A program made the position numbers and the translations under genes. A model generated the notes under the pieces. It had not been told where the DNA came from, searched no databases, and was given only the letters and a program-made list of their open reading frames with translations. This document shows, piece after piece, positions 38,512 through 52,557 of a stretch of DNA of 52,888 bases (position 1 is its first letter; each line of letters starts with the position of its first letter). The DNA comes from Planctomycetota bacterium (GTDB lineage: Bacteria > Planctomycetota > UBA11346), in assembly GCA_038231435.1 (NCBI GenBank), contig JBBRLJ010000037.1, forward strand, positions 1 through 52,888. Reading direction: 5' to 3'.

Positions 38512-38973
38512 ATGGCCCACACCTACAACGCCCGCATCGATTGGACCGGCGCCGCACGCGGACCGGCCAAGGACTACAAGACCTACTCGCGCGAGTTCGT
38601 CGCGGCGATCGCTGGCAAGCCCGCGTTGACAGGCAGCTCTGATCCGGCCTTCGTGGGCGACGCGGCGCTGCACAATCCAGAGGACCTGCTGGTCGTGTCG
38701 CTGTCGTCCTGCCACATGCTCAGCTACCTGGCGCTGTGCGCCAATTCAGGCGTGGTGGTCACGGCCTACAGCGACGACGCTGTTGGCACCTTGGATCAGG
38801 TCGACAAGCAGTTCAAGATGACCGATGTGCTGCTGCGCCCGCGGGTGACCATCGCCCCAGGGTCCGATCCGGCCAAGGCCGAGCGTCTGCACCAACGGGC
38901 CCACGACATCTGTTTCATCGCCCGGTCGGTGAACTTCCCGGTCCGGCACGAGGCGGTGGTCGTCGTCGGCTGA
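38512..38973 (+). CDS. OsmC/Ohr family protein
   Basis: GSSDPAF, NPEDLL...SSCHMLSYL, AHDICFIARSV (both Cys present). Confidence 0.93.
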   Translation: MAHTYNARIDWTGAARGPAKDYKTYSREFVAAIAGKPALTGSSDPAFVGDAALHNPEDLLVVSLSSCHMLSYLALCANSGVVVTAYSDDAVGTLDQVDKQFKMTDVLLRPRVTIAPGSDPAKAERLHQRAHDICFIARSVNFPVRHEAVVVVG

Positions 38974-39082
38974 AGCGTAGAAGGCTCGTCGTGCGCAGAC
39001 CAGCGCGGCATCGGGCTTGTCGCACGCGAGGCAGGCCTATCCTGCGCCGGTCTTCCCCTCCGTCCGCCCGCTGGAGCCGACC

Positions 39083-39361
39083 ATGGCCGTCAATATCCGC
39101 ATCCCCTCGGTGCTGCGCAACCTGACCGCCGGCAAGGAGACCATCGAGGTCCAGGCCGCATCGGTCGACGACGCGCTGAACGCGCTCGAGAAGGCCCATC
39201 CTGGCATCAAGAGCCGCCTGTGCGACGATGGCGGCAAGCTCCGCCGCTTCGTCAACGTGTTCGTCGGCGAGGAGGACATCCGCTTCCTCGAGGGCCAGAC
39301 TACCGCGCTGAAGGATGGGGATCTCATCGACATCGTTCCGGCCATCGCCGGCGGCCGCTGA
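39083..39361 (+). CDS. MoaD/ThiS family ubiquitin-like sulfur carrier
   Basis: RRFVNVFVGEEDIRFL...IVPAIAGGR*; GGAG RBS. Confidence 0.95.
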   Translation: MAVNIRIPSVLRNLTAGKETIEVQAASVDDALNALEKAHPGIKSRLCDDGGKLRRFVNVFVGEEDIRFLEGQTTALKDGDLIDIVPAIAGGR

Positions 39362-39381
39362 CCGGGCCTGGCGTGACCGCC

Positions 39382-40575
39382 ATGTCTCCACCGGCGGAGC
39401 CGCGCTCGTCTGACATCTCCAGTCTGCGGCTCGACCTCGCCAACCAGGGCGTGAAAGTCGGCGACGATCTGATCAGCGCCGGATTCGGCCTGGCACTCGC
39501 CTCCGATGGTGGTCTCGGCGGTGCGCCTGGCGAATCGGCCGAGGGCATCGACATCATCCTGCCCGGCGGGTGGTGGACGAACGTGTGCGTGGCACCCAAT
39601 TACGCCCGCACCTCGCCGTACACGCTCTCCTTCGCCAGTCCGGGCAGCGAGACGCTGGTGCTGCGCCACCGCGCGCGCGGCGACATCCCCATATCGGTGC
39701 CCGACACCTCGCGTTTCCGCCACTGCCGCACGCATACCGGCGTCTCGTGCGGCGACATCGGCGCCATCCACGGCCCCTGGCTGGTCACCTCTCCGTTCAC
39801 GGCGCGCGCGGGTGTCGGGCTGGACCGACCGCGCCGCTTCCTCGGCCTGCCGCCCCAGCGCCCCCTCACCAAGGGCCAGTGGTCGATAGATGATGTGGTC
39901 GCCTGCGCCGAGGCGGCGTGGCGGTCGGGCGCCCGCCTGGTGCACATCGAGGCCGGCCACGTGCTCAAAGAAGATGGCGGCCTGGCGGATATCGGACCCT
40001 ACATCCAGGCGATCAAACGCGCGCTGCCGACCCTGGTGTCCCTGAGCGTGCTGCCGCCCGAGGATCCGGCGCAGGTCCTGCACCTGTACGCCGCCGGTTG
40101 CGATGCGATCAGCTATCCGCTGCTCGCCTGGGACGAGGCAGCCGCCGCCCAGGTGGCTCCCGTTCGCGCGCGCTTCGTCTCGCACGCTCGCATCCTGGCC
40201 GCGCTCGAGGCCGCCGCGCGCTGGTTCCCTCGCGGCGCCGTCTCCACCGATCTGCTGCTCGGCCTGGAGCCCTTGAAGAACGTCGGCGAAGCCTGCGCAG
40301 CGCTCGCCGCCAAAGGCATCGTCCCCAACCTCACGGTGTTCCGCCCCCTGCCCGGTGCCGAGGACGAGGCGCCCAGCGGCGAGATGGTGCCCACCGATCC
40401 GATCTTGCAGCTGATGGAGAAGCGCACCCGGCTGCTGCACACCTACCGGCTCGCCAGCAGCCGCGTGCGTGGATTCCCGCGCGTCCATTCAGGGATGGAT
40501 CGCTACCGGCCGAGCGTGGCTAAGCGGTGGTATTCGGACTGGAGACGGCGCATCCGCGTGGTCGAGGTCACATGA
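39382..40575 (+). CDS. Radical-SAM-fold protein (MSMEG_0568/BioB-like) lacking the Fe-S cysteine motif
   Basis: SPYTL, RTHTG, AGCDAISY, STDLLLGLEP and GIVPNLTVFRPLPG fit this subfamily, but no CxxC occurs anywhere in the protein. Confidence 0.7.
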   Translation: MSPPAEPRSSDISSLRLDLANQGVKVGDDLISAGFGLALASDGGLGGAPGESAEGIDIILPGGWWTNVCVAPNYARTSPYTLSFASPGSETLVLRHRARGDIPISVPDTSRFRHCRTHTGVSCGDIGAIHGPWLVTSPFTARAGVGLDRPRRFLGLPPQRPLTKGQWSIDDVVACAEAAWRSGARLVHIEAGHVLKEDGGLADIGPYIQAIKRALPTLVSLSVLPPEDPAQVLHLYAAGCDAISYPLLAWDEAAAAQVAPVRARFVSHARILAALEAAARWFPRGAVSTDLLLGLEPLKNVGEACAALAAKGIVPNLTVFRPLPGAEDEAPSGEMVPTDPILQLMEKRTRLLHTYRLASSRVRGFPRVHSGMDRYRPSVAKRWYSDWRRRIRVVEVT

Positions 40576-42092
40576 CGGACGTCTCCCAGCAGCCGGCCGA
40601 GCCATCCGGCCCCAAGCCAGCGCAGTTCCAGGCGCGCGTGCGCTTCGACGACCGTCCGTTGCCGCTGCTCATGTTGGCGCGCGGCTGGCGGGGAATTGTG
40701 TTGGTTGTGGTCCTTGCTGGATTGGGTTGGGCGCTGTGGCAGAGCACCCGCCTGCCGGTGGTGGCGCAGAATGGGCTGCCGTCAGCCGCCTCGTTGCGCG
40801 CCTTCGCCATCTTCGCCGCCGCTGTCGTGCTGTGGGTGACCGCCGCGGTGCCGCTGGTGGTCACCGGCCTCGGCGTGTTCATCGCGTTGAGCGTCGCCAA
40901 CGTGGATACCGCGCATGCCCCAGGCATCGAGCAGACCCGGACCGTCGCCACCTGGTTCGCCGATCCGATCGTGTTCTTCCTGCTCGGGGCGTTTCTGATC
41001 GCGGGCAGCCTGTCGTCGGCACACGTCATCGATCATGCCGCCTTGCGCCTGCTCGATCTGCTGGGCACCAGCGCGCGCAAGCTGCGCCTGGTGTTGTTCG
41101 GATGCGCCTTCGGCGCGTCGTTCCTGCTCTCCGAGCACGCCGTCACCGCGATGCTCTTCCCCCTGGCGGTGCGCATCCGCGACGCGCTGAAACTCGAGCG
41201 CGGCCGCTCGACCTACCTGAAGGGGTTGTTCCTGGGCCTGGCCTGGGGAGCGACCATCGGCGGCATCGTCACCTACCTCGGCGGCTCGCGCAATCCTCTG
41301 GCTATGGGCTTTCTGCAGAAGAAGGACATCGTCATCCCCGGGTTCTTCGAGTTGATGGCCTACAGCCTGCCGGTCGCGCTGCCGCTCGCGCTGATCGCCA
41401 TCGTAGTCATGGAGATCGCCTTCCCGATCGACGTCGGTTCCATCGCCGCCGCGCGCGATTCATTGGCCGAGCGCCAGCGCGAGCTCGGACGCTTTGGCGC
41501 GCGTCAGCGCCTGGTCAGCCTGATCATGGTAAGCGCGGTGGTGGCTTGGGGTCTCGCCGGCTACGAGCACATCGCGGTGGTCGCGCTGTCGGCCTCAGCC
41601 GTCCTGCTCGGCACCGGCCTGGTGCGCTGGCGCGAGCTGCAGCGCGAAGTGCCCTGGGATCTGCTGCTGCTCTACGCAGCGGCCCTAGCGCTGGCGAAGG
41701 CCCTCAAGCTCACTGGCGCGCCCGAGCTGATCGGCGCGCACCTGCTGCCGTACCTGGGACACAATCCGGTGGTGGCCGTCGGCGTGATCGCGACCGTGGC
41801 GATGCTGCTGACCGAGGCCATGAGCCATGGCGCCGTGGTGAGCATGATGGTGCCGCTGCTCTTGACCGCGGCGCCGGATCTCGGCCTGACCCCGGTCGAG
41901 GTAGCCCTCGCGGTGGCGCTGCCCGCGGGACTCGCATTCATGCTACCGATGGGCTCGCCGCCGCTGGCGATCGCCTTCGTCAGCGGCGAATTCCGCATCT
42001 CGACCATGACCATCAAGGGCTCGATCCTCAACCTGCTCGCGGTCCCGGTGGTGATGCTCGCGTACTGGCTGGTGTGGTCGCGCTGGCACTAA
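40572..42092 (+). CDS. SLC13/DASS family anion transporter
   Basis: FADPIVFFLLGAF, LSEHAVTAM, IGGIVTYLGGSRN, TEAMSH, FMLPMGSPP; ATGA overlap with the preceding gene. Confidence 0.9.
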   Translation: MTDVSQQPAEPSGPKPAQFQARVRFDDRPLPLLMLARGWRGIVLVVVLAGLGWALWQSTRLPVVAQNGLPSAASLRAFAIFAAAVVLWVTAAVPLVVTGLGVFIALSVANVDTAHAPGIEQTRTVATWFADPIVFFLLGAFLIAGSLSSAHVIDHAALRLLDLLGTSARKLRLVLFGCAFGASFLLSEHAVTAMLFPLAVRIRDALKLERGRSTYLKGLFLGLAWGATIGGIVTYLGGSRNPLAMGFLQKKDIVIPGFFELMAYSLPVALPLALIAIVVMEIAFPIDVGSIAAARDSLAERQRELGRFGARQRLVSLIMVSAVVAWGLAGYEHIAVVALSASAVLLGTGLVRWRELQREVPWDLLLLYAAALALAKALKLTGAPELIGAHLLPYLGHNPVVAVGVIATVAMLLTEAMSHGAVVSMMVPLLLTAAPDLGLTPVEVALAVALPAGLAFMLPMGSPPLAIAFVSGEFRISTMTIKGSILNLLAVPVVMLAYWLVWSRWH

Positions 42093-45864: not shown

Positions 45865-46626
45865 ATGGTCTCACCAGGGATGCGCAGGTACCGGGTGCGG
45901 ACCGAGCGCCAGGCGTCTCTGGTCGGCGAGCGCGGCGATCGTGGTGATCGTGGCGAGAGTAGCGAAGCCGGGATCGATCTCGATGCGGCATTCCCGGATC
46001 TGGTCGGCGCTCCCACGCGGCTCGAGATCGGTTTCGGGCACGGCGAATTCATCAGCGAGATGGCGAACGCGCATCCGCACGAGCGTTTCATCGGCGTCGA
46101 GCACGAGGACCTGCGCGTCACCAAGACCGCCCACAAATGCCTCAAGCTCGGCGCGACCAACGTCCGGCTCTATGGTGACGATGCGCACCGCTTCGTGCGT
46201 TTCCGCCTGCCCGCTGCGAGCATCCATCGGGCCTACGTGCTGTTCCCCGATCCATGGCCCAAGCCCGGACATCGCCGGCGCCGGCTGCTCACGCGCAGCT
46301 TCCTGCTCGATCTCAGCCACGCCGCCGCGCCGGGCTGCCGGCTGGCGGTGGCCTCCGACACTCACGACTACGCCTTCCAATGCCTGTCGAACCTGACCAC
46401 CCTCCCTGGATTGTGGCGGAACCTCTATCAGCCTGCCGGCTACCGCTTCGACATCCCCACGCGCTTCCCGACCCTGTTCGAACGCCACAAGAAAGCCGAG
46501 GGATGCACGATCTGCTACCTGCTGGTCGAACGCACCTCGTCGCCAGCCACCGATCGCGCTCCCTGGCCAGGACGACACGTCGACCCGGAGCAGGAACCAT
46601 CTTCACCGCTTGAGCGAACGCCTTAG
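45865..46626 (+). CDS. trmB: tRNA (guanine-N7)-methyltransferase
   Basis: LEIGFGHGEF, FIGVE, FPDPWPKPGHRRRRL, ASD, TLFE. Confidence 0.92.
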   Translation: MVSPGMRRYRVRTERQASLVGERGDRGDRGESSEAGIDLDAAFPDLVGAPTRLEIGFGHGEFISEMANAHPHERFIGVEHEDLRVTKTAHKCLKLGATNVRLYGDDAHRFVRFRLPAASIHRAYVLFPDPWPKPGHRRRRLLTRSFLLDLSHAAAPGCRLAVASDTHDYAFQCLSNLTTLPGLWRNLYQPAGYRFDIPTRFPTLFERHKKAEGCTICYLLVERTSSPATDRAPWPGRHVDPEQEPSSPLERTP

Positions 46627-46712
46627 CCGTAGGCAGGCGTATTCGAAAGCGCCGTCGAACCTTTCGCTGGATCGGGCACTTGCGGGCCGCGTGTGTGAAC
46701 TAGCATGACCAC

Positions 46713-47783
46713 ATGCGTCACGCCTCAGCGCGCCGGATCATCGCCCGCCTCCTCGAGGGGCAGGGGTTCGGCGAGCAGGCGATCTCCCAGGCGCTGATGG
46801 CGACGCTGCAGGACCGTGAGGACTGCCCCGACACCCTCAAGCAACTGCTCGATCACGTCGACGATCTCGGCACCGATATGGCGCGGCCGTACATCGGCAG
46901 ACTCAACCAGGAACCCATCCCCCGCGACCAGCGCGACCTGTGCGCGCAGCTCGCACCGACGCTGATCGACCACCCCGACGACACCGGCCTGAATCTCGCC
47001 AGCCTGCTAGCGCTGGTCCAGCTGTGGCCGCACGTCTCGAGCGACGAGCGCCCGCTGGTGCGCCTGCGCTTCCTCAACGGCCTCACCAGCCGTACCGCAC
47101 CCGCGGGCAGCTTCGCGACGCGCGAGCACCTCTGCGCGTGGCAACGCGGATTGCCGACGGCGCACGGCGCCGAGGAGCCGAACCTCGCCAGCCTCCAGGC
47201 CCTGCTCGTCGAGGAGACGCCCGAACGCGCCTACCGCTGTCTCGCCGAGCACCTCGATCCGCGCATCGATCTGCCGCGCATCGGCCACGTCATCGGTGCC
47301 CTCGCGCTGACCCTGCTGCGCCAGTTCCACGATCGCGAGGGACTGGCGCTGCACGTCCTGCTCGGATCGGTCGCGATCGAGCGTCTCGCCGAATGGGCGG
47401 AGCCCGAGCACCTCGCCACCCTGGTGGCGCAGCTCGCACACCAGCTGTGGTGGTCGCGCCAAAAGGCCCAGCTGCCTCCGGTCCTGATGTGCCTCGACAG
47501 CACGCCCTTGCCACTGGTCGACGCGGTGCGCAGCGGCGATGTCACCCTGGCCCAACGCGCCGCGCGCTCCGCCAGTCAGAACGCCGCGGGGTTCTGGGAG
47601 GACGCCTGGCAACTGCTCGCCGACAGCATCTCGCGCCGCGACGAGCACTGGCCCCGCGCGCTCGGCATGGCCAGCGCCATCGCCTGGCGCGGCGGAGCGA
47701 ACACAGTGTCGCCCGACGACGCAGCGGCGCTGGCATCGGTGTTCGCGGACATGGCGCACCAACGCGACCGGATCTGCCTGTAG
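46713..47783 (+). CDS. Hypothetical alpha-helical protein
   Basis: A 356-aa ORF with natural composition that fills the gap between trmB and the ArsR gene. No family recognised. Confidence 0.7.
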   Translation: MRHASARRIIARLLEGQGFGEQAISQALMATLQDREDCPDTLKQLLDHVDDLGTDMARPYIGRLNQEPIPRDQRDLCAQLAPTLIDHPDDTGLNLASLLALVQLWPHVSSDERPLVRLRFLNGLTSRTAPAGSFATREHLCAWQRGLPTAHGAEEPNLASLQALLVEETPERAYRCLAEHLDPRIDLPRIGHVIGALALTLLRQFHDREGLALHVLLGSVAIERLAEWAEPEHLATLVAQLAHQLWWSRQKAQLPPVLMCLDSTPLPLVDAVRSGDVTLAQRAARSASQNAAGFWEDAWQLLADSISRRDEHWPRALGMASAIAWRGGANTVSPDDAAALASVFADMAHQRDRICL

Positions 47784-47813
47784 TCTGGGGGTCGTAGCCC
47801 CCAACTGAGAGTT

Positions 47814-47842
47814 GCATCGTTCCATCGCGATGCGACGATGGA
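47814..47842. promoter_or_regulatory. Two overlapping palindromes, candidate SahR-like operator
   Basis: GCATCG-N8-CGATGC (47814-47833) and TCCATCG-N8-CGATGGA (47821-47842), ending 3 bp before the ATG. Confidence 0.6.
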
Positions 47843-47845
47843 TCC

Positions 47846-48832
47846 ATGTCAGTCGGCGATTATCTCAGGCTGCTCGGCGATGAGACCAGGCTCCGGGTGC
47901 TGCACCTGCTCGAGGCTGAGGCGTTGACGGTCGCCGAGCTGCAGGACGTTCTCGATCTGGGGCAGAGCTCGATCAGCGGGCACCTCGCGAAGCTCAAGCA
48001 GGCGGGGCTGATCCACGATCTGCCAGAGGGCAGTGCGCGGCGCTACCGCATCCGCGAGGACGCCGATGTGCGCCTGCGCTCGACCTGGGCCTCCGTGCGC
48101 GACCTCTCCAAACAGGAGGCGCAGTTCGCCGCCGATCTCCGCCGGCTCGAAGAGAGCCTCAAGGATCGCGGCGAGACCTGGGTTGATCGCGTCGCCGGCA
48201 GCCTGCACCGTGAGTACGCTCCGGGGCGGACGTGGGAGAGTCTGTGCCATGGGTTGCTGCTGTTCGCGCGCTTCGGGCGCTGTGTCGACGTTGGGGCGGG
48301 CGACGGCGCGATGGTCGAATTGGTCGCGCCCCAGGCGGATACCCTGACCTGCGTGGACCCATCGCCGGCGATGGTCTCGGCGGGACTCGAGCGGGTGAAG
48401 GCGCTGAAGCTCGCGAACGTGCGTTACCTCCAGGCCGAGGGCGAGGAGCTGCCGCTGGACGATGGCTCGTGCGATTCGGTGCTGTTTCTGCAGAGTCTGC
48501 AGTACGTGCGCGATCCCGCCAAGGCGCTCGCCGAGGCGGCGCGCGTGCTCGCTCCGGGCGGACGGCTGCTGGTGGTGACACTCGCCCGACATGATTTCGA
48601 AGAGGGCGACCGCTACGGCCATCGCCATCGCGGATTCGGGCTCGACGAGCTCAAGCGCTGGAGCCGCGGGCTGATCGAGCCACGCATCTACACCCTGCCG
48701 CCCGAGGTCCGTGCCCCGCGCTTCCAGACGGTGGTGTTGTCGGCGGTGAAGGAGGTCACGCGCACAGCGGTGCGCCCCGGCCGCACGTCCGCGACACGGG
48801 CCAACCACGCCGAGCGCGGAGACAGGCCATGA
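47846..48832 (+). CDS. ArsR-HTH plus SAM-methyltransferase-domain regulator (SahR-like)
   Basis: LGDETRLRVL...QSSISGHLAKLKQAGLI; PGRTW; VDVGAGDG; coupled to metH. Confidence 0.9.
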   Translation: MSVGDYLRLLGDETRLRVLHLLEAEALTVAELQDVLDLGQSSISGHLAKLKQAGLIHDLPEGSARRYRIREDADVRLRSTWASVRDLSKQEAQFAADLRRLEESLKDRGETWVDRVAGSLHREYAPGRTWESLCHGLLLFARFGRCVDVGAGDGAMVELVAPQADTLTCVDPSPAMVSAGLERVKALKLANVRYLQAEGEELPLDDGSCDSVLFLQSLQYVRDPAKALAEAARVLAPGGRLLVVTLARHDFEEGDRYGHRHRGFGLDELKRWSRGLIEPRIYTLPPEVRAPRFQTVVLSAVKEVTRTAVRPGRTSATRANHAERGDRP

Positions 48833-51800
48833 CCGGCGCCACGCCGGGCGGCACGGATCACGGCGAGAGCGGCCACGACTGCGGCATCGGCTGCCCGCAT
48901 CACGGCCGTCCCCAAGGCACCGGCTGGACCGCGGACGAGCCGGCCGATCACCTCGGGTACCGCCGCGATGCGCGCGCCGACCGCTTCGCCTATCTCGGCG
49001 CGATGCGCGAGCGGGTGCTGATCTACGACGGCGGATTCGGCACCGAGCTCTTCAAGTTCGACCTGCGTCCTGGCGATCTCGGCAGCGGCGAGCAGGACGG
49101 CTGCGTCGAGCTCATCCACCGCACCCGCCCCGAGATCGCGCCGAGCATCCACCGCCGCTATTTCGAGGCTGGCGCGGACGTGGTGGAAACCCATTCGTTC
49201 AACGCCATCCCCCACGCCCTGGGCGAGTTCGGCATCGCCGACCAGGCCGAGGAACTGGCCGAACTCGCCGCGCGCGCCGCGCGCGGCGCCGCCGACGAGT
49301 TCTCGACCCGCGAGCGCCCTCGCTTCGTCGCCGGGGCGTTGGGATCCGGCACCAAGCTGCCGTCGCTCGGGCTGATCGCCTGGGATGCCTTGTTCGCGTC
49401 GTACCGGGTCGGAGCGCGCGGTCTCCTGCGCGGCGGCGCCGACCTGATCCTCATCGAGACCGCCCAGGACATCCTGCAGGTGAAGTGCGCCGTGCTGGCG
49501 GCGCGCGAGGCAATGCGCGATCTCGGCCGCGAGGTCCCCATCCAGGCCCAGGTGACGATCGAGACCACCGGCCAGATGCTCGCCGGCACCGACGTAGCCG
49601 GCGCGCTGACCGCGCTCGAATCCCTGCCCATCGATGTCATCGGCCTGAACTGCGCCACCGGCCCCGATCTGATGGACAGCCACATCCGCTACATCGGCGA
49701 GCACGCCACGCGCTGGGTCAGTTGCCTGCCCAACGCCGGCCTGCCGCGCAATGTCGGCGGCAAGGCGGTCTACGACCTGACGCCCGAGGAGCTGACCAGG
49801 TGGCACGCCAAGTTCGTCAAGGACTACGGCGTCAACGCCATCGGCGGCTGCTGCGGCACCACGCCCGACCACATCCGCGCGGTGGCGCGCCAGCTGCATG
49901 GCGCCACCGCCGGGCGTAAGCGCGCGGACAGTTCAGTACCCTCGCTGTCGTCGCTCTACACCAGCGTGCCGCTCAAGCAGGACGCCGGCATACTCATCGT
50001 CGGCGAGCGCACCAACGCCACCGGCTCGAAGGCCTTCCGCGAGCTGCTCTTCAAGGATGACTGGGACGGCATGGTCGCGCTGGCCCAGGAGCAGGTCGCC
50101 GAAGGCGCCCACGTGCTCGACGTGTCGGTGGCCTGGACGGGCCGCGACGAGCGCCGCGACATGCGCGAGGTGATGAAGCGATTCGCCACCGCGGTGAACC
50201 TGCCGATCATGGTCGACTCGACCCAGATCGACGTGATGGAGGAGGCGCTCAAGCACCTGGGCGGCCGGGCGATCATCAACTCGGTGAATCTCGAGGACGG
50301 CATCGACAAGTTCGACCGCGTCTGCGAGCTGGCCAAGCGCTACGGCGCCGCCCTGGTCGCGCTCACCATCGACGAGGACAAAGAGGCCTCGATGGCCAAG
50401 AGCGTCGAGCGAAAGCTCGAGATCGCGTCGCGCATGTACGAGCTGATCACGAAGAAGCACGGCCTGCCGGGCTCCGGGATCCTCTTCGACCTGCTCACCT
50501 TCCCGATCACCCAAGGCGACGAGGACACGCGCAAGCTCGGATTGTGGACGCTCGAGGGCATCGAGGCGGTGAAGGCGAAGTTTCCCGACGCGGGTTTCAT
50601 CCTCGGCCTGTCCAATGTCTCGTTTGGCATCAAGCCGCACGCGCGCCAGGTGCTGAATTCGGTCTATCTCGACGAGGCGATCAGGCGCGGGCTGACTGCG
50701 GCGATCCTCAACGCCGCCAAGATCAAACCGGTCAACCAGATCCCCGAGCAGGAGGTCGAGATGAGCCGCGACCTCATCTACGACCGCCGCGTGATCTCCG
50801 AAGCCGGGGAGACGACCCACGATCCTTTGTTCGTGTTCGTCGACCACTTCACCAAGAACGTGGCCAGCGCAGCACAGACCGCGGACGCCGAACTGGCGCT
50901 GTCGATCGAGGATCGCCTCAAGCGCCGCATCATCGATGGCAAGAAGATCGGCGTCGAGAAGCACCTCGACGAAGCGCGCGGAAAATACACGCCCATCCAG
51001 ATCATCAACGACATCCTGCTCGATGGCATGAAGGTGGTCGGCGAACTGTTCGGCTCGGGCAAGATGCAGCTGCCGTTCGTGCTGCAGTCGGCCGAGTGCA
51101 TGAAGGCGTGCGTGCGCCATCTCGAGCAGTTCATGGACAAGGCCGGCGGCAACCAGAAGGGCACCATGGTGCTGGCGACGGTGAAGGGCGATGTCCACGA
51201 CATCGGCAAGAATCTCGTCGACATCATCCTGACCAACAACGGCTACAAGGTGCATAACCTCGGCATCAAGCAGCCGATCGATGCCATCCTCGCCGCCGCC
51301 GAGCAGTTCAAGCCAGACGCCATCGGCATGTCCGGCCTTTTGGTCAAGTCGACGGTGGTGATGAAGGAGAACCTCGAGCACATGGCGGCGCGCGGCATCA
51401 ACGCCACCGTCATCCTCGGCGGCGCTGCGCTCAATCGCGCGTATGTCGAGGTCGACCTGCGCGCCAGCTACCAGGCCGGTTCGCGCAGCCACGAGCAGGC
51501 GCCGGTCTACTACGCTCCCGACGCTTTCGATGGTCTCACCTTGATGGAGGAGATCTGCAAGCAGGTGCCGGCGGAGAAATTCCGCCTCACCACCAAGAAG
51601 GCGGCTACGCGTTCAGCGAAGACCGCGAACCAGATCCTCGAGGAGAAGCTCGAACTCGGGAAGGCCTACGTGCCGTCCCAGGTCGCGCCGGCGCCGCGCA
51701 TCCCCAGGCCGCCGTTCTGGGGCCGGCAGCTGGCCACCGGCACGGATCTCGACCTGCCGACGATCTCCAGATACATCAACTCCAACGCGCTGTTCCGCGG

Positions 51801-52557
51801 CCAGTGGGGCTTCCGCCAGGGCCAGGAGCTGAGCGCTGCCGAGTGGAAGGACCTCGTCGAACGCGAGGCCGAGCCGGTGCTCAAGCGCCTGGTCGAGCAG
51901 GCCACGCGCGAGCGCATGCTCGATCCGGCGGTGGTGTACGGCTATTGGCCATGCGCCTCGGATAAGAACGACCTCATCGTCTTCGATCCGGAGACCGGCG
52001 CCGAGCGCTGCCGCTTCAATCTGCCGCGACAGATGGCCGAGGGTTCACGCCACCTGTGCGTCGCAGACTTCTTTCGCGCGCGCGGTTCAGAAGCCCTCGC
52101 GGACGAGCGTTCGATCATCCCGGCCAAGGCCTGGGACAATGGCGCGCGCGACGTCTTCGCGGCGCACTGCGTGACCATGGGCAAGGTCGCGAGCGAGCAC
52201 TGCCAGCGCCTGTTCAAGGCCGACAACTACCAGGAATACCTCTATTTCTACGGACTCTCGGTCGAATCCGCCGAGGCCCTGGCCGAGTATTGGCATAAGC
52301 GCATCCGCCAGCAGCTCGGCATCGCCCAGGACGACGCCCTGGAGCTGAAGGAGCTGTTCACCCAGCACTATCAGGGCAGCCGCTACTCGTTCGGCTACCC
52401 AGCATGTCCGCGACTCGAAGACCAGCGCCAGCTCGATCAGCTGCTGCACTGGAAGGACATCGGCATCGAGCTGTCGGAGGAGTTCCAGCTCCATCCCGAA
52501 CAATCGACCAGCGCGCTGATCGTTCACCATCCGGCAGCCAAGTACTTCAATCTCTAA
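48829..52557 (+). CDS. metH: Cobalamin-dependent methionine synthase
   Basis: GLNC, GGCCGT, GERTN, DVHDIGKN, SGLL, RYSFGYPACP, PEQSTSA. Confidence 0.98.
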   Translation: MTGATPGGTDHGESGHDCGIGCPHHGRPQGTGWTADEPADHLGYRRDARADRFAYLGAMRERVLIYDGGFGTELFKFDLRPGDLGSGEQDGCVELIHRTRPEIAPSIHRRYFEAGADVVETHSFNAIPHALGEFGIADQAEELAELAARAARGAADEFSTRERPRFVAGALGSGTKLPSLGLIAWDALFASYRVGARGLLRGGADLILIETAQDILQVKCAVLAAREAMRDLGREVPIQAQVTIETTGQMLAGTDVAGALTALESLPIDVIGLNCATGPDLMDSHIRYIGEHATRWVSCLPNAGLPRNVGGKAVYDLTPEELTRWHAKFVKDYGVNAIGGCCGTTPDHIRAVARQLHGATAGRKRADSSVPSLSSLYTSVPLKQDAGILIVGERTNATGSKAFRELLFKDDWDGMVALAQEQVAEGAHVLDVSVAWTGRDERRDMREVMKRFATAVNLPIMVDSTQIDVMEEALKHLGGRAIINSVNLEDGIDKFDRVCELAKRYGAALVALTIDEDKEASMAKSVERKLEIASRMYELITKKHGLPGSGILFDLLTFPITQGDEDTRKLGLWTLEGIEAVKAKFPDAGFILGLSNVSFGIKPHARQVLNSVYLDEAIRRGLTAAILNAAKIKPVNQIPEQEVEMSRDLIYDRRVISEAGETTHDPLFVFVDHFTKNVASAAQTADAELALSIEDRLKRRIIDGKKIGVEKHLDEARGKYTPIQIINDILLDGMKVVGELFGSGKMQLPFVLQSAECMKACVRHLEQFMDKAGGNQKGTMVLATVKGDVHDIGKNLVDIILTNNGYKVHNLGIKQPIDAILAAAEQFKPDAIGMSGLLVKSTVVMKENLEHMAARGINATVILGGAALNRAYVEVDLRASYQAGSRSHEQAPVYYAPDAFDGLTLMEEICKQVPAEKFRLTTKKAATRSAKTANQILEEKLELGKAYVPSQVAPAPRIPRPPFWGRQLATGTDLDLPTISRYINSNALFRGQWGFRQGQELSAAEWKDLVEREAEPVLKRLVEQATRERMLDPAVVYGYWPCASDKNDLIVFDPETGAERCRFNLPRQMAEGSRHLCVADFFRARGSEALADERSIIPAKAWDNGARDVFAAHCVTMGKVASEHCQRLFKADNYQEYLYFYGLSVESAEALAEYWHKRIRQQLGIAQDDALELKELFTQHYQGSRYSFGYPACPRLEDQRQLDQLLHWKDIGIELSEEFQLHPEQSTSALIVHHPAAKYFNL

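Follow-up and report, generated by a model that had tools for sequence, protein, structure and literature searches.

Background

Radical S-adenosylmethionine (SAM) enzymes normally hold their iron-sulfur cluster by three cysteines. Here we describe a protein of 397 amino acids (aa) with a predicted radical-SAM (rSAM) fold that lacks these cysteines, together with the DASS permease encoded directly behind it. Both genes lie in a window of 52,888 nucleotides (the whole of the stretch that was analysed; contig JBBRLJ010000037.1 of assembly GCA_038231435.1) from a Planctomycetota bacterium. A first-pass annotation had proposed a sulfur-handling module of four genes, which also comprised an OsmC-family protein and a ThiS/MoaD sulfur carrier. 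We find instead that the unit is the two-gene rSAM-like/DASS pair, standing behind a more widespread carrier. This unit is real, conserved and apparently undescribed, and it is built of known parts.

Several described systems resemble parts of the locus. The 397-aa protein is homologous over its full length to the variant_rSAM family (NF045502), with which it shares the N-terminal extension and the barrel, but it stays below the family cut-off (74.7 bits against 125) and has neither the Cys triad nor the N-x-E motif. On our mapping, this variant family probably corresponds to Megaclusters 4-6 of RadicalSAM.org; the accessible part of PMC9477430 catalogues the CX8CX2C and CX9CX2C spaced motifs of these megaclusters and describes no function. 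Distant homology and a widely spaced Cys motif also link the protein to the MSMEG_0568 family radical SAM proteins of the Nit1C nitrilase cluster (TIGR04043). However, it scores 65 bits with TIGR04043 against a cut-off of 303.7, the MSMEG_0568 proteins form a separate clade, and their nitrilase-cluster neighbours occur in none of the loci that we read. Plasmid matches of the TIGR04043 type show about 25% identity to a relative. In structure, the best match is lipoyl synthase (LipA/LIAS, PDB 8TRW and 4U0P; Z about 17), and the HNVET ribose motif of LipA aligns with the YNLE of the variant family. The identity is nevertheless 13%, the cluster ligands are missing, and a common fold shows no function.

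The permease belongs to the DASS/SLC13 proteins (e.g. VcINDY, NaS1), which are dimers. To our knowledge, those DASS transporters that have been characterised need no soluble partner, and we know of none that has a radical-SAM-fold protein as its companion or fusion partner. Carriers of the kind found here are known from protein-thiocarboxylate pathways, namely CysO-Mec-MoeZR-CysM in Mycobacterium (PMC3227635) and MetO-Mec-MoeZ-MetM in Streptomyces (GapMind 2026 preprint), and from operons of carrier, JAMM, E1 and cysteine synthase (types 4c and 4e in PMC1779556). Unlike the window locus, these pathways come without any mention of a radical-SAM protein or a DASS in the accessible parts of the three sources. 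A literature search for an rSAM-DASS pair, or for such a radical-SAM pseudo-enzyme, gave nothing relevant, with subscription journals thinly covered and no supplements.

Fold and descent of the cysteine-less protein

A Pfam scan of the 397-aa protein gives no match, and because Pfam misses it entirely, such genes are annotated as hypothetical. The first-pass annotation had read it as a radical-SAM homologue, and structure prediction bears this out. The AlphaFold2 (AF2) model (pLDDT 87.5, pTM 0.88) has the partial TIM barrel typical of radical-SAM proteins. Lipoyl synthase matches it with a Z of 17.2 and a root-mean-square deviation of 3.8 over 253 aligned residues (Foldseek E-value 2e-6), and further top matches are HydG, ThiH, HydE and BioB. 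The top 41 rows of a wide VIA structure search are radical-SAM-family entries, and an Atlas search returned radical-SAM clusters (0.98) and a further cluster without a common family. The viral contigs searched yielded one weak match of 35 residues.

Judged by its sequence, the protein descends from the CX8-9CX2C variant family in spite of its sub-threshold score; intact relatives reach 153-211 bits with NF045502. HHalign joins its family to a family of Zetaproteobacteria fusion proteins at 99.7% over 364 columns.

To describe what was lost we used an alignment of the query and 72 full-length homologues at 55-73% identity (the search gave 77 hits; four partial or weak ones were omitted). The 397-aa protein has cysteines at positions 69, 115, 123, 175, 240 and 305 and, as had been noticed before, no CxxC. 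In the alignment, its segment TSPFTARAGVGLDRPRRFLG takes the place of the CX8-9CX2C loop found in intact relatives, and the three cluster-Cys columns (CX8CX2C in the intact relatives) are occupied by R142, R151 and L154; in distant relatives the corresponding site reads CX8-14CX2C. The triad is absent in 73/73 aligned sequences, so that its loss in the window protein is not a matter of chance, and the clade-wide loss that had been suggested is borne out. With the triad absent, we would place the protein outside the radical-SAM enzymes. Scattered cysteines converging on a cluster were considered as well and rejected, since C123 is the sole invariant Cys of the alignment (73/73) and there is a homologue with two Cys altogether. 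At position 123 the intact relatives have Met.

The YNLE (N-x-E) of the relatives reads YPLL or YHLL in the cysteine-less clade, with L248 in 73/73, and the SAM-ribose glutamate is absent from all 73 sequences. The adenine-side elements are kept: F/Y153 is present in 73/73, LLLGLE has invariant G294 and E296, and FRP is retained. We take the roles of the ribose motif (N-x-E/D on strand 4) and of the adenine-side motifs (the aromatic residue before the third Cys and the GxIxGxxE-type strand 5) to be those of BioB and LipA. In addition, H130, H188, E190, S220, D290, N316 and R321 are invariant in 73/73, and intact relatives have other residues at most of these sites. According to the AF2 model, the newly invariant H188, E190, S220, D290 and N316 sit on barrel strands, and H188 and E190 alternate along one predicted strand.

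Coupling of the cysteine-less gene and the permease

We compared 35 related loci, 14 from genomes and 21 from metagenomes, some of them redundant. The order of carrier, rSAM-like gene and DASS is kept across them, in agreement with the conserved neighbourhood expected earlier. DASS follows the cysteine-less gene in 24/35 loci; it is absent in four loci of genus g3, and the contig ends too soon in the remaining seven. The rSAM-like stop overlaps the DASS start in all 20 loci checked (some near-duplicates). OsmC, on the other hand, stands beside the carrier in 3/35 related loci.

The same picture emerges from the 48 genomes of the order, which are related and do not count as independent. The cysteine-less gene occurs in 15 of them. 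An orthologue of the DASS (E < 1e-100) occurs in 11, all among these 15 and directly behind the gene, and in none of the 33 genomes that lack it. The carrier orthologue is found in 33 genomes, 19 of which are without the cysteine-less gene; the data thus do not support the carrier as its tightest partner, whereas the DASS orthologue was never found without it. In G001 and G002, two genomes of the same genus as the host, ORF translations show that OsmC, the carrier and the downstream genes are kept and the rSAM-like gene and DASS are both missing.

Since G001 and G002 lose both genes, the DASS orthologue occurs only with the cysteine-less gene, and the frames overlap in 20/20 loci, the unit consists of two genes and not of four. 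The rSAM-like gene and the DASS are genetically coupled and are usually kept or lost together. OsmC, which persists where the pair is missing, is a bystander and does not belong to the module in which it had been placed.

Both genes show purifying selection, as had been supposed for the cysteine-less protein. The ratio of nonsynonymous to synonymous substitution rates (dN/dS) is 0.00-0.20 in the nine closest pairs of the rSAM-like gene, and DASS is similar; the pairs come from homologues, the window's own gene being without a close relative in the set. Distant pairs give 0.35-0.6, which we attribute to saturation of the GC-rich third positions. Full-length open frames at 55-73% identity are found across seven genera besides the window's own.

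Relatives and natural fusions

In P0161 an intact CX9CX2C domain is fused to a DASS. A search with this protein gave 165 matches; among the 120 listed, 120/120 keep the triad and nearly all are rSAM-DASS fusions of about 880 aa, those named being Mariprofundus, Ghiorsea and other Zetaproteobacteria. Outside Planctomycetota, we read the context of intact DASS-linked relatives from these fusions. The fusion DASS belongs to the subfamily of the window DASS, is 32-34% identical to it and has the EHA and GGAR motifs in common with it. In our trees, the cysteine-less clade has a long stem branch and lies nested within the clade to which P0161 and the JAMM fusion discussed below both belong (SH-aLRT 99 against the outgroup); the deeper forks are open and several branches are long.

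Two features distinguish this DASS-linked clade. A C-terminal RRxLxV motif is present in 48/51 of its rows against 2/70 in other clades, and it is shortened in the DASS-less copies of genus g3. The full triad is absent in 17/51 DASS-linked rows (two truncated, some possibly frameshifted) against 3/70 elsewhere; therefore the cluster has been dispensable repeatedly in this clade. The wider profile matches 81/301 genomes. The intact homologues of Planctomycetota (CX8-14CX2C) form another clade, and at 24 of their loci we found no carrier or DASS genes shared with the cysteine-less loci (0/24).

Some further members of the family were seen on the way. In the DASS-less g3 copies (L021:9461-10624, L039:9344-10501, L040:600-1757) the last strand of the C-terminal motif is trimmed. 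In three of the 24 loci of the other Planctomycetota clade (L024:9179-12099, L025:9259-11565, L107:2502-7165), intact CX8-10CX2C homologues lie near a common membrane protein which, judged by eye, resembles UbiA prenyltransferase. P0167 and P0171 (related: P0187, P0222) are ATP-grasp proteins fused to a CX8-9CX2C radical-SAM domain, about 780 aa long, and form a separate clade. P0129 and P0184 are intact variant proteins that carry an additional domain (about 110-130 aa), C-terminal in one and N-terminal in the other, which has no Pfam match and a 'FFYK...SRDR.SYGA' stretch in common. P0166, P0173, P0188 and P0225 form a well-supported group in which the entire cluster loop is deleted.

The permease and its sulfur context

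The window DASS scores 210.2 bits with TIGR00785 (cut-off 198.6) and aligns along VcINDY. It differs from described DASS proteins in several ways: the first SNT motif reads EHA, the second reads SHG (SNP, SNA or SNT in orthologues), the invariant Arg240 stands in GG[A/S/G]R within the GSPPN loop, and its companion or fusion partner is a protein of radical-SAM fold. It is the only DASS found in the host genome. From its context, it is probably a sulfate or thiosulfate importer. G001 and G002 carry a sulfate ATP-binding cassette (ABC) binding protein, none was found in the host genome (G000), and all four DASS-less g3 genomes have one. The distribution of SulP gave no clear pattern.

The carrier is CysO-like. 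It has the ThiS/MoaD fold and a C-terminal GG with an extension, its protein ending in ...AGGR, and the GGR end would have to be trimmed by a JAMM peptidase. A search for ThiF and JAMM genes, as suggested by the first-pass annotation, was successful: other contigs of the host genome encode a JAMM, CysM, a MoeZ-like E1-rhodanese, CysD, CysN/C, a PAPS/APS (adenosine phosphosulfate) reductase and a sulfite-reductase-like gene. We call the carrier CysO-like because a JAMM and a Cys/Met pyridoxal-phosphate (PLP) enzyme lie divergent to it in G055 and at two loci from metagenomes; in G055, CysM comes next. The host genome thus has a PLP synthase in addition to JAMM and E1-rhodanese, as in the cysteine and homocysteine thiocarboxylate pathways.

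Three observations on sulfur genes stand apart. In the host genome (G000:C3:15347-18111, also L188:7348-10112), CysD is below the TIGR02039 cut-off and represents a divergent type common to many genomes of the family. The CysN that follows it there has a degenerate-looking APS-kinase domain. In genus g7 (L034:6849-8418 and related loci), a RadC-like JAB gene and an unannotated membrane protein of 210 aa are divergent from the carrier, and this gene pair is present also where the rSAM-DASS pair is missing.

Locus layout

The positions of the features are collected in Table 1. All four co-oriented reading frames of the first-pass annotation were found again at its positions, as were the 20 bp between the carrier and the rSAM-like gene and the ATGA overlap of the latter with DASS. 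Pfam and NCBIfam scans identify OsmC, ThiS/MoaD and DASS at the locus. Farther away (window 45865-52557, 4-10 kb downstream of the pair) our reading of the sequence gives a TrmB-like gene, an ArsR-methyltransferase and a methionine synthase MetH; the remaining loci that we read do not keep these genes next to the pair.

Table 1. Features of the locus, with positions counted from the first letter of the window
Feature	Position	Strand	Basis and remarks
OsmC-family protein	38512..38973	+	PF02566; local neighbour, outside the module
CysO/MetO-like sulfur carrier, 92 aa, ends GGR	39083..39361	+	PF02597; TIGR01687 above cut-off
Cys-motif-less protein of predicted radical-SAM fold, 397 aa; core of the finding	39382..40575	+	AF2, structural matches, HHalign
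Degenerate cluster loop, residues 137-156 of the 397-aa protein	39790..39849	+	Alignment with intact relatives
Basic C-terminal helix and RRxLxV-type motif of the 397-aa protein	40516..40575	+	Motif counts by clade
DASS/SLC13 permease, 506 aa	40572..42092	+	TIGR00785; start overlaps the rSAM-like stop

Proposed role and alternatives

We propose, with moderate confidence, that the 397-aa protein is free of a cluster, likely resides in the cytoplasm and serves the adjacent DASS, a probable importer of sulfate (or thiosulfate) for carrier-dependent cysteine synthesis, as an accessory or ligand-sensing subunit. Co-translation would give a 1:1 complex of the two proteins, which might dock through the basic C-terminal helix and RRxLxV motif, a candidate membrane or DASS docking element. 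The barrel would no longer cleave SAM and could still bind a small adenine-containing or anionic ligand, with SAM, S-adenosylhomocysteine (SAH) and APS as candidates. We propose retained ligand binding because F153, GLE294-296 and FRP have been preserved and residues that became invariant sit on the barrel strands. Such binding may stabilise the permease or gate uptake by sulfur status. The imported sulfur would be handed on to the carrier and CysM by way of CysDN, CysH, sulfite reductase and MoeZ; all these enzymes are encoded elsewhere in the genome. The binding between the two proteins, the ligand and the substrate are what we infer. The first-pass idea of a retained pseudo-enzyme that links anion uptake to sulfur metabolism fits this proposal; its partnership with an active paralogue and the membership of OsmC are not supported.

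More tentatively, the same reading could be extended to the whole clade: a radical-SAM barrel might have become a subunit dedicated to the regulation of a secondary transporter. Sulfate uptake would then have two components, a barrel that responds to the sulfur status and a permease that is gated by it. Intact members would sense via a labile Fe-S/SAM site, and the cysteine-less branch via a rebuilt cluster-free pocket.

A number of observations weigh against an accessory subunit of the permease. Four g3 genomes (72-88% complete) keep the cysteine-less gene without any PF00939 DASS, and one DASS-less g3 pair has a dN/dS of 0.10; the protein is therefore valuable also without the transporter. 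The carrier is directly upstream in 33/35 loci, i.e. in 33/33 of those with upstream sequence, the 2 other contigs beginning inside the gene. In P0105, a single sequence, a JAMM/Prok-JAB peptidase is N-terminal to an intact CX8CX2C domain that falls in the DASS-linked clade, and together with the upstream carrier it points to the carrier pathway. In the AF2 model of the natural fusion of M. ferrooxydans, computed for one chain, both domains fold (pLDDT 87.6, pTM 0.62), and the model gives no confidence in a fixed arrangement of the domains inside the chain. The complementarity with sulfate ABC systems is not significant (5/11 against 16/22, p 0.15). Position 246, His in 71/73 aligned sequences, is Pro in the window protein. 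Finally, there is no sulfate-activation gene at the locus and no Rfam riboswitch at gathering scores in the window or in eight related loci, and we therefore infer the DASS substrate from indirect context.

The main rival is a role on the side of the carrier, which we regard as unlikely but ahead of the remaining alternatives. The protein would then be a non-radical scaffold or sulfur relay that binds the CysO-like carrier, perhaps via C123, and DASS would merely supply the pathway. Besides the constant upstream position of the carrier and the JAMM fusion, this agrees with the carrier and the rSAM-like gene staying together, under selection, in the DASS-less g3 loci, with the invariance of C123, and with the closest fold, lipoyl synthase, being an enzyme that acts on a carrier protein. 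However, 19 of the 33 genomes with the carrier have no cysteine-less gene, the gene is lost along with DASS and not with the carrier, the Met of intact relatives at C123 means that there is no ancestral relay residue, and the JAMM fusion is a single case.

Less probable still is a neofunctionalised metalloprotein, in which His, Glu, Asp and C123 would bind a mononuclear metal or an atypical cluster for non-radical catalysis on an imported sulfur compound. The seven invariant residues listed above, with H188 and E190 alternating on one predicted strand, speak for it; the single invariant Cys, and the homologue with two Cys in all, leave no conserved three-Cys site, and H246 is Pro in the window protein. 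A slowly decaying relic carried in the operon would explain the patchy distribution (15/48 genomes), the long stem branch and the lost catalytic motifs, but the low dN/dS, similar to that of DASS, already largely excludes it, and full-length frames in seven genera besides the window's own and newly invariant residues are at odds with it; we consider it highly improbable. Equally improbable is a heterodimer in which the protein is the inactive partner of an active radical-SAM paralogue, or a module of four genes with OsmC: pseudo-enzymes often pair with active paralogues, and OsmC is co-oriented here and in three other loci, but the host genome (87.6% complete) and each of the 15 gene-bearing genomes, incomplete as they are and searched with a profile from the cysteine-less clade, gave one family match and in the host no intact paralogue, and OsmC persists where the pair is missing.

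Significance

If the 397-aa protein is indeed a cluster-free subunit of the permease, it would be a candidate for a part of bacterial sulfate uptake that has gone unrecognised. Proteins of the radical-SAM kind are generally taken for enzymes; a conserved and selected branch without the cluster, coupled gene by gene to a DASS, suggests that an uncharacterised subfamily has a non-catalytic function, and the cysteine-less protein offers an oxygen-stable means to test that function. If this is true, the cysteine-less planctomycete branch would be a natural experiment which indicates that radical chemistry is not the purpose of this subfamily.

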